From a virus (taxonomy: Duplodnaviria; Caudoviricetes), in IMG/VR virus record IMGVR_UViG_3300028886_000037, positions 128,001 through 192,000 of that record: a DNA stretch of 64,000 nucleotides; one strand, 5' to 3'. A program made the translations under genes and the position numbers. The notes under the pieces are model-generated. The model saw nothing but the letters and a program-made list of their open reading frames with translations. It was not told the DNA's origin and searched no databases. Positions 20,813 to 42,367 of this stretch are shown in pieces. Numbering within the stretch: position 1 is the first letter of the stretch; each line of letters begins with the position of its first letter.

Positions 20813-20894
20813 TGTTTGATTCTAATATAGAAACTTCTTTCGGGTTTGTAAACCCTCTTTCTCAGAATTTTTTGAGAAAGTTGTTTATTTATAG

Positions 20895-24033: not shown

Positions 24034-24167
24034 ATAAGAAGTTTCCGGTTTTTCAATATGCAGATCCGGTTCTCGACTGGATCTTTTGTTGTTGATCAAA
24101 ATATACTAAAACGAAGCGGAGTTGTAAATACCTCCGCTTCAAAAAATTTGAATTTTTTTGATGGAGG

Positions 24168-24575: not shown

Positions 24576-24608
24576 GTCTTTATCCTTGTTGTGTTTGTTT
24601 ATTTATAG

Positions 24609-24986: not shown

Positions 24987-25019
24987 AAGATCTCCAAGTT
25001 TTTAGTGTTGTATTTATAG

Positions 25020-25091
25020 TGCGGGTGGCGGGGTTCGAACCCACGACTCGAAGATTAAAATTTAGTACTCTACCAACTGAGTTACACCCAC
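25020..25091 (-). pseudogene. tRNA-Lys(TTT) with broken anticodon stem
   Basis: acceptor, D and T arms intact; CTAAA cannot pair with TCTTC. Confidence 0.7.
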
Positions 25092-25577: not shown

Positions 25578-25919
25578 TTAGTCCTCCAAGAAGTCTTCGA
25601 AGTGTTCTTCAGTGACCGGTTCCACGTACTCGTAATTGTCGGAGTGAACCGTAGTGCCGAGGAAGGTCTTGAAGTTGTTGGACCAGAAGCTGTCGCCGTC
25701 CACGTAAGCGTAGTACTTCGGGAAGCAGCCGACCTTCTGGTAGACGTGCTTCATGAGAGCCTTGCCCTCATCCACGTCCTTGACCGTAGCTTCGATTGCG
25801 TCATCTTGGCAGATAACTCCGAGCCAGGTCATGCGGGCAGTCGGATTGACTTCTTTAGCCGCAGCCTGAAGTTCTTTGAGGTGATTGGTTTTGCCGATGA
25901 AGACGATTCGAAAAAGCAT
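25578..25919 (-). CDS. hypothetical early protein
   Basis: ORF after early promoter. Confidence 0.65.
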   Translation of the reverse strand: MLFRIVFIGKTNHLKELQAAAKEVNPTARMTWLGVICQDDAIEATVKDVDEGKALMKHVYQKVGCFPKYYAYVDGDSFWSNNFKTFLGTTVHSDNYEYVEPVTEEHFEDFLED

Positions 25920-26018
25920 AGCTTATTTCCTTGTTGAAGGTTTATCTCTTTTACATTGTAATTATAGCTTTTTCTCGACGTTTTGTAAACCCCAAAAATG
26001 AAGTTTTTTTCAAAATAG

Positions 26019-26091
26019 TCAGCGTGAGTGGGAACGATCCACTGACCTCACCGCCCCGAACGGTGCGCTCTACCAGCTGAGCTACACGCTG
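26019..26091 (-). tRNA. tRNA-Pro(CGG)
   Basis: CACCG-TT CGG GG-CGGTG. Confidence 0.9.
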
Positions 26092-26098
26092 AAATTAG

Positions 26099-26174
26099 CT
26101 GGGAAGGCAGGATTCGAACCTGCGATTTCTAGGGCATTACAGTGCCGTGGCATACCAGACTTGCCGACAACCCA
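26099..26174 (-). pseudogene. aberrant tRNA (Gln-like body, 6-nt CTGTAA loop)
   Basis: D and T arms present; mismatched acceptor. Confidence 0.55.
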
Positions 26175-26180
26175 ATGTAG

Positions 26181-26255
26181 TGGAGACGAAGGGAATCGAA
26201 CCCTTCACAGCCTGATTGCAAGTCAAGCTCGCCATCCTTGGTAACATGCATCCCC
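26181..26255 (-). tRNA. tRNA-Ala(TGC) copy 2, atypical D arm
   Basis: GGGGATG/CGTCTCC-A; CT TGC AA. Confidence 0.75.
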
Positions 26256-26259
26256 ATAG

Positions 26260-26342
26260 TCGGTACGGAAGGACTCGAACCTTCACGCCTTGCGGCATTC
26301 GATTTTGAATCGAACGTGTCTACCCTATTCCACCACGTACCG
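26260..26342 (-). tRNA. tRNA-Leu(CAA)
   Basis: TTCGA-TT CAA AA-TCGAA. Confidence 0.9.
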
Positions 26343-26404
26343 ATAAAGATAAAGCCGAATTGTCAATATGCAGATCTGCTTCACGAGCCGATCTTGTAGG
26401 TATC

Positions 26405-26439
26405 AAAAGAAAAAGAGGAAGTCGAACTGACTTCCTCTT
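26405..26439 (-). terminator. intrinsic terminator with a competing antiterminator
   Basis: AAGAGGAAGTC-AGTTC-GACTTCCTCTT-TTTCTTTT. Confidence 0.8.
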
Positions 26440-26466
26440 GAAATTTCGATACCAGATGGAAGTCAG

Positions 26467-26598
26467 CTATGGACTGATTGGCTTTGCTGCGATGTTGTTG
26501 TCTCTGCAGGCCAATTCAAAATCGAGTCCGCTATTCGGCGCAACAGCCAATTTGTAGTTGGCTTTGCCTTGATAAGATGTGATAGCGGTCAATTTCAT
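26467..26598 (-). CDS. 43-aa candidate leader peptide (not in ORF track)
   Basis: MKLTAITSYQGKANYKLAVAPNSGLDFELACRDNNIAAKPISP; stop abuts the antiterminator. Confidence 0.5.
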   Translation of the reverse strand: MKLTAITSYQGKANYKLAVAPNSGLDFELACRDNNIAAKPISP

Positions 26599-26692
26599 TT
26601 TTGTGTCCAGTGCTGTTTCCAGCTTGTTACGTTTTATTTATACGACAATATAGATAACTTTTTGTGCTTTTCGATGTAAAACTTTGTTTACA

Positions 26693-27121
26693 TTACTTGA
26701 CGGCGTAGATTCCAGCTTCCTTGAGCAGCTGTAGTGCAGACTCTAGCTCTTTGCTCTCAGTCTTTTGCGTTTGCGGCTGCTGCTGAGACTGTTGCGTCTG
26801 CTGCCCCTGTTGCTGTGCGGGCTTCTGCTCAGCTGCCTTCTTGACGTAGTCTATGACCTGCAGAGAGCCGTCGAACTTCTTTACGTCCTTCGGATTCTTC
26901 TGATCCTGAACGACATACGTGATGTCGCTGTTAGCGGTCATAGCGCTCACCTTGTAGATGACAGTGAATCGATCATTGAGGACTACGCCCTCTGCTACCT
27001 TCGTTCCCTTCGGCTTTACTTTGATTCCGGCCTTCTTAGCGTCAACGCATACAGCGTTGATCATATTTGCCATGAGGAACTGGACTGGATCTTTCTTGAA
27101 CTTGTCTACGTTGACGTGCAT
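26693..27121 (-). CDS. late protein with Gln-rich linker, candidate internal head protein
   Basis: SALQLLKEAG motif; TATAAATA at 27150. Confidence 0.6.
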   Translation of the reverse strand: MHVNVDKFKKDPVQFLMANMINAVCVDAKKAGIKVKPKGTKVAEGVVLNDRFTVIYKVSAMTANSDITYVVQDQKNPKDVKKFDGSLQVIDYVKKAAEQKPAQQQGQQTQQSQQQPQTQKTESKELESALQLLKEAGIYAVK

Positions 27122-27193
27122 TTGAAAACCTCTTTAGATTTGTACTTGTTATTTATAGAAAAAAGACTCTCAGTTTCCCGAGAGTCTTGATAG

Positions 27194-27266
27194 CAGCGCC
27201 TACCGGAGTCGAACCGGTGTTACAGCCTTGAGAGGGCCGTGTCCTAGGCCACTAGACGAAGGCGCC
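27194..27266 (-). tRNA. tRNA-Glu(CTC) copy 2
   Basis: CGGCC-CT CTC AA-GGCTG. Confidence 0.9.
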
Positions 27267-27342
27267 GTAGCGAGATCAGTGTTGTTGCACTTACTTCACC
27301 TGTGCGGTACATCGCAGCCTTTTCAACTTTATCTCTTTGTAG

Positions 27343-40699: not shown

Positions 40700-42367
40700 C
40701 TATCTCTTACGCTTATCTCTCACTAGGTTTGCGTACTCGACCTGCTGTCCAAGGAACTCATACAGTTCCCCGCGTTCTACAGACTTGATAGAGACTTCCT
40801 TCGGTGCCGCCTTTACGAGCTTCATGCGGATGTCTTCATAGTACTGACGATATTCGATCGTAGTCGAGTTGATGATCATGTCCCAGCGGAATCCGCCATT
40901 TGCTCTTATGCGCTGCTCTTCGTCGTTGAGCTTCGAGTAAGCGATTGCCGTGAATTCCTCTTTTCCACCGACATAGTTAGTGACCTTGATCTGGTCTGGA
41001 TAGTCGGTCATAGCGTCAAGCGCAGTCTGCTTTGCCTCTTCGTAAGTCATTATGCCTTCCTTGTGTGAACTGTTCACCGCCTTTAGGCTGTGAGCTTCTA
41101 GTTTTCGCTTCAACGGAGCCACTTGTGCTAACCCAGTAAAACCGGGAGGCATAGAGGCGGCTACCTCAGCGGAGGCGTGTTCCACGCACTCAGCACGTTT
41201 AGTCGTGCCAAACAAGAGTACATTACAGGCGGAATGCCAATCCCTCGGCTTAGTATAGCCGCAATCGCAGTGATATGTGCGTTCATCCAAGCCAATGGTA
41301 TTTACAGCACCGCAAACTGGGCACATCTTGGTAGTCGGTAACCACTTTGACAGCACGAATGCACGGTCTGTCTTAACAAGCATCTTGATTTTCTGCTTGA
41401 GAGCACCCATACACGAATGCTGAACTTGCTTACCAAACCAAGTCTGGCTCCAGTTCTTAATCTGTTCGTCCTGTATGTAGATGACATCATAATTAGACAC
41501 AAGGTCGTGATAGATTTTGTTGCAGATGTCCTTGCGGATATTCGCAACATGTTCATGCTCACGGGCAAGCTGCTTCCTACAGTTCCACCGCCGCTTGGAG
41601 TCCTTCTCTTTCTTGTGCCTGTTGAGCATCTTGCTCAGGTACTTTAGGTACTCGGTTTCTTGCACTTTGCAATCGTAGGTCTTGTTGTCCGATGTCGTTA
41701 TCGTATTCTTGATGCCGAAGTCCAGACCGACATTCTTTCGAGTGCGGTTTCTCTGCTCCTTCGGCAACATAGTCGTGAGTTTTACATAGTAGCCGGACGC
41801 CTTGCGGATTAGCTTGGCATCTGCTATCTCGTATTCCTCAAACTCTATCTGATGCAAGCCGTTCACCTTCAATTTCCTGAAGCCAGGAATGGTGATATGG
41901 CTTGCATCCAAAATCCTCGTGAAACCTGTAATGATGGGAATGCAGTTCACTTCGCTCTTGAACTTCAACGCGCCGACCTTCATCCCCTTGGCTTTCGCCT
42001 TGGCAAGGTTGACAATATCCGTCTTCTTCTGTGCTACAGTAGCACGATGAAGCACCGATGGTAATGTGACCGTATCCGTTATCGGGTTCTTGCCCTTGTC
42101 GTAGTGGACTACATCCTTGTGTTCGGTGTACTTGTAGTCGAATATACTGTTATCTGGATTGTCCTTCGACAATGACAACATATCGTTGATTACCCACTTC
42201 GCTTCCTTGAAGCACTGGGACAGCTTCTGGAATGTTTCCTTCGGATTGTGCCTTATGGAAACCTTCAGCTCGAACACTCGGCATATCTGCGTCTTACGAC
42301 GGGCATGAGTCTCTGCCATGCTCGCCTTAATCTTTGCCTTTGTATCTTCGCTTCTTACTGCTTCCAT
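40700..42367 (-). CDS. tnpB: TnpB RNA-guided endonuclease reading in frame into a downstream phage gene (MTYEEA, start 41050)
   Basis: VGLDFGIK, PTTKMCPVCG..YHCDCG..RDWHSACN. Confidence 0.9.
   Translation of the reverse strand: MEAVRSEDTKAKIKASMAETHARRKTQICRVFELKVSIRHNPKETFQKLSQCFKEAKWVINDMLSLSKDNPDNSIFDYKYTEHKDVVHYDKGKNPITDTVTLPSVLHRATVAQKKTDIVNLAKAKAKGMKVGALKFKSEVNCIPIITGFTRILDASHITIPGFRKLKVNGLHQIEFEEYEIADAKLIRKASGYYVKLTTMLPKEQRNRTRKNVGLDFGIKNTITTSDNKTYDCKVQETEYLKYLSKMLNRHKKEKDSKRRWNCRKQLAREHEHVANIRKDICNKIYHDLVSNYDVIYIQDEQIKNWSQTWFGKQVQHSCMGALKQKIKMLVKTDRAFVLSKWLPTTKMCPVCGAVNTIGLDERTYHCDCGYTKPRDWHSACNVLLFGTTKRAECVEHASAEVAASMPPGFTGLAQVAPLKRKLEAHSLKAVNSSHKEGIMTYEEAKQTALDAMTDYPDQIKVTNYVGGKEEFTAIAYSKLNDEEQRIRANGGFRWDMIINSTTIEYRQYYEDIRMKLVKAAPKEVSIKSVERGELYEFLGQQVEYANLVRDKRKR

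Follow-up and report, generated by a model that had tools for sequence, protein, structure and literature searches.

What stands at the head of the transfer RNA (tRNA) genes of a 248-kilobase (kb) rumen phage, and does it decide whether they are transcribed? The window, by which we mean the whole 64,000-nucleotide stretch analysed here, comprises bases 128001-192000 of the 247,923-base-pair (bp) IMG/VR virus record IMGVR_UViG_3300028886_000037 and carries 37 tRNA genes, interspersed with small open reading frames (ORFs), on the minus strand between 14045 and 27415; all element coordinates refer to this strand. Heading the array is an attenuator-type unit, namely a short ORF whose stop codon lies on a strand able to pair with an intrinsic terminator, followed by a tRNA leader and the first tRNA genes. 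The reading that we tentatively favour is that of a ribosome-mediated leader-peptide transcription attenuator of the trp/leu type, with the decoding of UUG as its most likely signal; the masking by the ribosome, the sense in which the switch works and its response to UUG are the parts that we infer. The elements that form the switch are, in the order of transcription:

26605-26623, minus strand: region 1, GCUG-GAAA-CAGC plus UGGAC, which self-folds (hairpin P0) or pairs with the stop region (helix P1)
26467-26598, minus strand: leader ORF of 43 codons plus TAG, with the ATG at 26598 and the TAG at 26469-26467, ending CCA-UAG
26458-26474, minus strand: region 2, GUCCA-UAG-CUGACUUCC, which supplies the 3' side of P1 and, starting at 26468, also the 5' side of the antiterminator
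26399-26453, minus strand: extended lower stem GGUAUCGAAA / UUUUGAUACC, which encloses the terminator and, according to the folds, is possible solely in read-through transcripts
26405-26439, minus strand: intrinsic terminator with an 11-bp stem, a 5-nucleotide (nt) loop and a U-tract, of which 26435-26425 is antiterminator region 3

Relatives of the unit were retrieved via neighbouring proteins and DNA patterns and sorted into six clades. Clade A comprises the window together with L002, L022, L027 and L028, clade B L003-L008, L029 and L030, clade C L023-L025, clade D L033/L040, and clade E L044 and L045, while clade F is L039 alone, where the contig end cuts the sequence and truncates the leader ORF. 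The useful divergent clades were obtained via a thymidylate-synthase-like neighbour, a neighbour of 208 amino acids (aa) and a DNA pattern. As queries, the 113-aa neighbour protein found no relatives, the 142-aa neighbour protein found no distant homologues and the leader peptide retrieved one contig only, of chimeric appearance; a search of INPHARED phage records for relatives yielded tRNA matches only. On a 1075-bp metagenome scaffold (L031:830-1021), the promoter and the first 37 leader-ORF codons are fused to unrelated sequence, the fusion being called as a gene of 63 residues and stemming either from chimeric assembly or from a rearrangement.

Judged from its pattern of change, the leader ORF is a conserved small coding gene, because it displays a coding signature and its frame is retained in relatives. 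Recent changes within clades A-C comprise 10 synonymous and 6 non-synonymous ones in the ORF frame (expected synonymous share 0.22; P 7e-4), against 3:13 and 2:14 in the alternative two frames, and third codon positions hold 11 of these 16 changes. The ratio of non-synonymous to synonymous substitution rates (dN/dS) is 0.11-0.18 inside clades and 0.38 for A versus B; it is 0.25 for E versus F, where dS is saturated (1.46) and one of the synonymous changes turns Arg AGA into CGC. No insertions or deletions occurred in the ORF among clades A-C, compared with at least seven such events in the flanks, and in every clade the leader region is free of stops in the ORF frame and has one to four in each other frame. 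Homologous ORFs of 42-45 codons were found in clades D and E and, truncated, in clade F; frame, start and stop are retained across six clades (F truncated). The peptides align at 27-32% identity across clades and have in common an N-terminal MKLT, followed by CG, G(L/F)R, P(K/R)F and KP. They matched no family in Pfam or PHROG, and gene callers left the ORF uncalled on all of the first related contigs retrieved. A type I toxin messenger RNA (mRNA) was considered and rejected, as the leader peptide is not hydrophobic. In clade E (L044:5500-5522 and the L045 equivalent), a C-to-A change that preserves the P0 hairpin also creates an in-frame AUG seven codons ahead of the conserved start, which makes a 52-codon form of the leader possible.

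Around the stop codon of this ORF, a set of competing pairings was found. CTGACTTCC at 26466-26458 (in RNA form, CUGACUUCC) begins immediately 3' of the leader stop and is complementary to GGAAGTCAG (26435-26427), a stretch of the terminator that runs from its 5' arm into the loop; a 22-nt spacer precedes the terminator. The terminator hairpin reads AAGAGGAAGTC-AGTTC-GACTTCCTCTT at 26439-26413 and is followed by a T-tract. The full antiterminator has 11 bp, AGCUGACUUCC:GGAAGUCAGUU, takes in the AG of the stop codon and has a local free energy of -18. Calculated as the duplex between the 5' arm and the 67 nt that precede it, it amounts to -19.9 kcal/mol, a value that none of 2000 dinucleotide shuffles reached (mean -7.8 +/- 1.9, minimum -16.9); for the window's other eight terminators with a perfect stem the values range from -3.7 to -10.7 kcal/mol, which makes the leader's terminator the outlier among the nine. 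The complementarity of the antiterminator is far beyond chance. The competing P1 duplex has -19.4 kcal/mol, with 2 of 2000 shuffles as low. In folds of the growing transcript, region 2 pairs with the 5' untranslated region (UTR) until the terminator 5' arm emerges, then switches to that arm (-64.8 versus -55.7 kcal/mol), and terminator and P1 prevail once the 3' arm has emerged. The predicted pairing landscape, 1:2 / 2:3 / 3:4, is thus that of classical attenuators. As for the extended lower stem, it might serve as a processing site of the RNase III type.

These results agree with what a preliminary description, made from the window sequence alone, had observed. Its coordinates and sequence statements for the 43-codon ORF at 26598-26467 ending in TAG were all correct, the complementarity that it saw between the post-stop sequence and the 5' arm and loop of the terminator is real and longer than described (11 bp), and a tRNA leader and tRNAs do come after the terminator. 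The phase of the ORF, whose conservation in relatives it had proposed as a check, is kept in six clades. Its interpretation, which was that of an attenuator sensing general translation stress and gating the tRNA array, is partly supported, as will become apparent below.

A comparison of the clades argues that the pairings matter. The antiterminator core UGACUUCC:GGAAGUCA (8 bp) does not vary in five clades, nor does the terminator stem, and the terminator, with its 11-bp stem and U-tract, is present in every clade. In all six clades the leader stop falls within the antiterminator's 5' strand or immediately ahead of it, either as UAG 4 nt before the core (A-C) or as UGA forming the core's first 3 nt (D-F). 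The stop therefore stays on region 2 despite changes in its identity, its position (-4 or 0) and the length of the ORF (42-45 codons). Beside the core, an extension pair changes from C-G to U-A in clade E, its partner being a terminator-loop base that has no role in the terminator stem. Moreover, clades C and D give the same three-state folding series as the window. That the stop tracks the antiterminator strand, the loop base covaries with region 2 and the folding series recurs argues for a functional antiterminator. Of the other helices, the terminator stem changes its foot pair from A-U to G-C in clade B, P0 stays paired in clade E via a C-G to A-U double change (GAUG-GAAA-CAUC), and P1 is predicted in clades A-D with differing geometry. 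The interior helices P2 and P3 show two compensatory pairs only, and in about 92-95% of randomly mutated copies the fold energy is kept less well than in the clade B interior, a marginal result; conservation of P2 and P3 was accordingly dropped as support.

Downstream of the terminator lie a tRNA leader and a first block of tRNA genes:

26347-26394, minus strand: tRNA-operon leader, with the hairpin AGAUCGGC-UCGUGAA-GCAGAUCU at 26394-26372, then GCAUAUUGACAAUUCGGCUUUAUCU ending at 26347
26018-26342, minus strand: gated block, consisting of tRNA-Leu(CAA), a tRNA-like RNA, a damaged tRNA of Asn(GTT) type and tRNA-Pro(CGG)
26342-26259, minus strand: tRNA-Leu(CAA), the first gene of the gated block
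26255-26178, minus strand: tRNA-shaped RNA between tRNA-Leu and the Asn-like tRNA, uncalled by ARAGORN
26174-26098, minus strand: damaged tRNA of Asn(GTT) type, called by ARAGORN with a two-base anticodon, loop CTGTAA (6 nt)
26091-26018, minus strand: tRNA-Pro(CGG), the last gene of the gated block

The tRNA leader is itself conserved, six of its eight hairpin stem pairs having changed on both sides across clades, and is followed by a box with the consensus UUGA(C/A)A-N-UUCGGC. Patterns of 21 and 22 nt taken from it proved unique in the window (up to 3 mismatches), and direct alignment revealed two diverged copies, near 24085 and 20809, each made up of the hairpin and a GCAUAUUGA(A/C)A box. 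Both copies sit about 15 nt behind promoters of the form TTTACA-N17-TATATT, whereas at the 26-kb unit the terminator takes the place of such a promoter. By its hexamers, no promoter of sigma-70-like form is present between the terminator and tRNA-Leu(CAA); the candidates tried, TTGACA at 26366-26361 or TATCTT as a -10 element, would start transcription inside the tRNA. With no promoter after the terminator and a terminator in the promoter's place, the leader, tRNA-Leu(CAA) and the next tRNAs would need read-through. The preliminary description had called this leader boxA-like. We found no match to the Escherichia coli rrn boxA (UGCUCUUUAACAA) with up to 3 mismatches in 26340-26400, and an antitermination leader of the rrn boxB-boxA type was rejected on this account, the hairpin being real and the boxA consensus missing.

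How much of the array the switch could gate is a separate matter. Further promoters exist inside the array at about 24128 and 20852, hence only the first block lies with certainty behind the switch, and, of the rest, at most a transcript of the whole array would be gated; the earlier suggestion of a gated tRNA array is accordingly secure for the first block only. A transcript spanning the entire array is hinted at by an exact 13-nt complement of TTCGGCTTTATCT (26347-26359) at about 14039-14027, after the last tRNA. This trailer complement sits just before a terminator at 13991-13962 and recalls the processing stems of ribosomal RNA.

On the upstream side, the unit is preceded by two promoter elements:

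26647-26680, minus strand: sigma-70-like promoter, with a -35 element TTTACA at 26680-26675 and a -10 element TATCTA/TATATT at 26656-26647, from sequence and scan
26635-26642, minus strand: TATAAATA T4-type late-promoter motif, adjoining the RNA element on its upstream side

Clades A-D have the sigma-70-like promoter of the leader ORF and clade E lacks it, and a scan of the window revealed that sites of the form TTTACA-N17-TATA(A/T)T recur before several other units. TATAAATA, which we take to be a T4-type late promoter motif, is invariant upstream of the leader unit in every clade of the module. It has 19 copies in the window versus 1.1 expected (an about 17-fold excess), and 17 of the 19 are on the coding strand. 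Such sites occur on the minus strand, for example, at 25011-25018, 24600-24607, 20886-20893 and 27150-27157; several copies abut tRNA 3' ends, with the 'CTA' after the discriminator forming the start of CTATAAATA. In clade E, a different 43-codon ORF, called as a gene, was also noticed (L045:2867-2998, L046:2465-2596 and the matching L044 region). It is preceded by a TTTACG-N17-TATATT promoter and followed by a leader with a GATC hairpin and a tRNA, and could represent a second leader-ORF unit, one that is lacking at the window's 27529 promoter.

Which event in translation would the switch sense? The preliminary description had proposed general translation stress, on the grounds that the ORF uses 18 of the 20 amino acids. 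The count is right, but it marks nothing special: at least 18 amino acids are used in 28% of 43-residue windows from the phage's own proteins. The codons point elsewhere. TTG accounts for 9 of the 16 Leu codons in the leaders of five clade representatives, against 10% in phage genes, and makes up 4.4% of all codons in leaders versus 0.8% in phage genes, a 5.5-fold enrichment. It is the most enriched of 59 codons in the leaders (P 6e-6), a statistic that overstates independence in that the clades share ancestry. In the window the UUG codons are codons 3, 17 and 29, and at the conserved Leu positions 17 and 29 (window numbering) TTG is used wherever the residue is Leu. The first tRNA behind the module has the anticodon CAA in every clade and is usually followed by Asn(GTT) and Pro(CGG); taken together, TTG, AAC, AAT and CCG contribute 14.6% of leader codons versus 7.0% in phage genes. 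The test of first-block codons, TTG included, was picked after the data had been seen. A mirroring of the whole array by the codons of the ORF was rejected, since the fraction of exact matches to the phage tRNA set (0.651) is hardly different from the background (0.646) and enrichment is confined to the first-block codons. As the leader is rich in UUG and matches tRNA(CAA), the tRNAs are probably made when ribosomes read UUG slowly; judged by codon usage, what the attenuator responds to is probably the decoding of UUG and not translation stress in general.

The switch may be pictured as follows. Transcription would start at the sigma-70-like promoter and the T4-type late TATAAATA motif just upstream, and region 2 would then have two possible partners, the 5' UTR (as P1) or the 5' arm and loop of the terminator (as the antiterminator). 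A terminating ribosome covers about 12 nt downstream of the stop codon, which means that all of region 2 would be masked by a ribosome at the stop. If it stood there while the terminator was being synthesised, the terminator would fold and no tRNA-Leu(CAA) would be made. If, on the other hand, the ribosome lagged in the ORF, region 2 could pair with the terminator 5' arm and allow read-through into the leader and the tRNAs. Without any ribosome, P1 would probably capture region 2 and lead to termination, the equivalent of superattenuation in trp. As to what slows the ribosome, the likeliest step would be the decoding of UUG by tRNA(CAA), always the first gene downstream, and the result would be an autogenous feedback on the supply of tRNA(CAA), perhaps also on that of the Asn and Pro tRNAs of the block. 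Pro-UAG-C and UGA-C are slow termination contexts in E. coli, and the window's ORF ends with Pro followed by UAG-C; slow stop contexts of either kind would prolong the masking of region 2. The phage may, as we cautiously suggest, gauge its own tRNA supply via a translated test gene, with slowing at UUG (perhaps also at Asn and Pro codons) inducing tRNA-Leu(CAA) and its followers.

Several observations weigh against this reading, quite apart from the shared ancestry of the clades and the match of the ORF's codons to the whole tRNA set, which is at background. The UUG codons are scattered, with one to three per leader, and form no runs as in classical leaders. Covariation in the antiterminator is limited to a single pair, and clade C, besides having a weaker U-tract, has a mismatch (U to A) in region 2 that interrupts the antiterminator centrally. 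Since region 1 precedes the ORF, a stalled ribosome would leave it unmasked, unlike in trp, and in clade E region 1 self-folds and the outer P1 is lost. The Shine-Dalgarno match in the window's clade is weak (-3.3 versus a median of -5.6). Finally, purifying selection acts on the peptide itself; a mere 'ruler' ORF would have no need of it, and it agrees with a small protein that has a function. As the peptide sequence is selected, a separate small-protein function or an effect of the nascent chain is possible.

One alternative keeps the attenuator and changes what it reads. The same device would be a non-specific gauge of translation speed, in which any slowing, be it by tRNA cleavage, starvation or host shut-off, gives read-through, whichever codon is concerned. 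All structural and coding evidence for an attenuator applies to it equally, the small number and scattered distribution of the UUG codons and the length (42-45 codons) and ordinary composition of the ORF suit it, and known attenuators of resistance genes do answer general ribosome slowing. We nevertheless consider it unlikely, given that TTG tops the list of 59 codons and matches the first downstream anticodon in every clade, and that the argument from 18 of 20 amino acids is not significant. What remains of the earlier interpretation is therefore the attenuator architecture, with a coding ORF, a stop on the antiterminator strand in six clades, a competing terminator and no later promoter, whereas the 'general translation-stress sensor' rested on the amino-acid argument that failed, and the data point to UUG instead.

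Another alternative dispenses with the switch altogether. The ORF would be an ordinary small-protein gene, equipped with a promoter and terminator of its own and encoding a 43-residue protein with a separate task, the tRNAs being reached by constitutive leak through the terminator or by long upstream transcripts, and the pairings would serve the stability of the mRNA or the control of its translation. Here the purifying selection on a peptide that is 27-32% identical across clades counts in favour, and mRNAs are commonly stabilised by features of the kind seen here, a helix closing the 5' and 3' ends (P1) and a hairpin at the 5' end. A 142-aa gene at 27121 likewise lies directly behind a terminator (27188-27163), but it has its own TATAAATA at 27157-27150. 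An ordinary gene would leave unexplained that the stop tracks the antiterminator strand through changes of identity and position, that a loop base covaries with region 2, that a terminator replaces the promoter before the same leader, and that the enriched TTG matches the downstream anticodon; its peptide, too, is without a Pfam or PHROG family. We hold this explanation to be improbable.

A structured noncoding RNA or riboswitch was initially favoured because the z-score of the fold is -8.1 for the whole unit and -4.85 for the ORF region taken by itself, which is predicted to form a three-way junction; it was dropped as the main interpretation after the coding signature had appeared, Rfam remaining empty. 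An Rfam search with cmscan over 25900-27300 (E up to 10) returned only tRNA-type matches and, within the element itself, some at chance level (E above 2), with none to the T-box. That region 2 is masked for a time set by a TnaC-like peptide stalling the ribosome at the stop codon, or by an RNA switch that works without the ribosome (the P1-P2-P3 junction), in response to a ligand or factor, is very unlikely: the peptide is conserved, it ends in the slow contexts Pro before UAG-C (A-C) or UGA-C (D-F) and the ORF region is unusually structured in three clades (z -4.85, -4.1 and -3.95), yet the C-terminal residues vary by clade (PISP, NRCE, DGLS, DPLS), P2 and P3 are barely better kept than by chance (5-8% of mutants fold equally well) with just their two compensatory pairs, and Rfam offers no match.

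The gated block and its surroundings deserve some further remarks. In the damaged Asn(GTT)-type tRNA, the 6-nt loop differs from that of the close relative L028, which has the anticodon loop CTGTTAA and a normal Asn(GTT); the window copy thus has a 1-nt deletion and is either a damaged tRNA-Asn or the product of a homopolymer sequencing error. The tRNA-shaped RNA at 26178-26255 is also present in L028 and L033, and its sole Rfam match is a sub-threshold one to the transfer-messenger RNA model (26.1 bits versus a gathering score of 47). Further along the minus strand, a 'tRNA-Stop (tta)' at 25019-25091 occupies the position of the relatives' tRNA-Lys(TTT) and has an unpaired anticodon stem, features that suggest a Lys tRNA altered by decay or recombination and not a working ochre suppressor. 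A read-through of the leader's TAG by this tRNA was considered and rejected: the tRNA looks degenerate, and the extended frame is not kept in clade B. Elsewhere in the window, at 40700-42367 on the minus strand, a 555-residue ORF with OrfB_IS605 and Cas12f1-like TNB domains encodes a transposon nuclease of the TnpB type.

If the attenuator reading is true, it bears on whether large phage tRNA arrays are constitutive or on-demand. The unit would represent a compact natural sensor of the decoding speed of a single codon and could allow the phage to react on demand to a depletion of host tRNAs or to defences that cleave tRNA. The clades already provide natural variants, which differ in the stop codon (UAG or UGA), in the strength of the antiterminator (reduced in clade C) and in P1 (lost in clade E), and the conserved leader peptide of 42-45 residues constitutes an uncharacterised small-protein family.

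Among known systems, the enterobacterial leaders trpL, leuL, hisL, thrL and pheL (RF00513, RF00512, RF00514, RF00506 and RF01859) come close to the phage unit. They share with it a short coding ORF, the pairings 2:3/3:4 (and, as predicted in clades A-D, 1:2) and an intrinsic terminator, as well as a stop placed for coverage of region 2 and, perhaps, codons cognate to the controlled product. Unlike them, the phage unit would control tRNA genes and not biosynthetic enzymes, and would consequently sense the abundance of a tRNA rather than its charging. It further differs in having one to three scattered cognate codons, an ORF of 42-45 codons, a conserved peptide and a region 1 upstream of the ORF, and in being driven by phage promoters. 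In the cmscan of 25900-27300 (E up to 10), no match in sequence or structure to these five families or to RF00230 was obtained. Escherichia coli pheST with its leader pheM likewise subjects a component of the translation apparatus to leader-peptide attenuation; pheM is a 14-residue leader with a run of Phe codons and controls a synthetase, while the genes controlled by the phage unit would be tRNAs. The attenuators of Listeria lmo0919 and of Bacillus vmlR and bmrCD, which were found by term-seq, respond to drug-stalled ribosomes and control resistance proteins, resemble the unit in their small upstream ORF, their terminator and antiterminator, and, presumably, the read-through that slowed ribosomes bring about; the general sensor of the preliminary description has its model in them. 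The match between codon and downstream anticodon sets the phage unit apart from them. The prediction of ribosome-mediated elements of the attenuator type has been reviewed (PMC5314783).

With respect to the controlled genes, the trn operon of Anabaena sp. PCC 7120 offers the nearest published parallel, as it is a long tRNA array induced under translational stress (PMC8421152); as would be the case for the phage unit, an accessory tRNA array is switched on there when translation is impaired (PMC8421152). Its regulation involves direct repeats in the promoter and the repressor TrcR and not attenuation (PMC8421152, PMC10272220), and in the published account of the operon (PMC8421152) leader ORF, attenuator and terminator have no occurrence. 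The T-box riboswitch (RF00230) is similar in being a terminator/antiterminator leader that reads a tRNA, but it binds uncharged tRNA directly and free of translation, whereas the phage leader ORF is under coding selection and the element has no Rfam match. In the full-text literature, no account of leader-peptide attenuation of tRNA genes was found, be it for phages or for cells. Leader-peptide attenuation is the textbook circuit of amino-acid operons, and in this phage it would be applied to tRNA genes and probably tuned to one codon.

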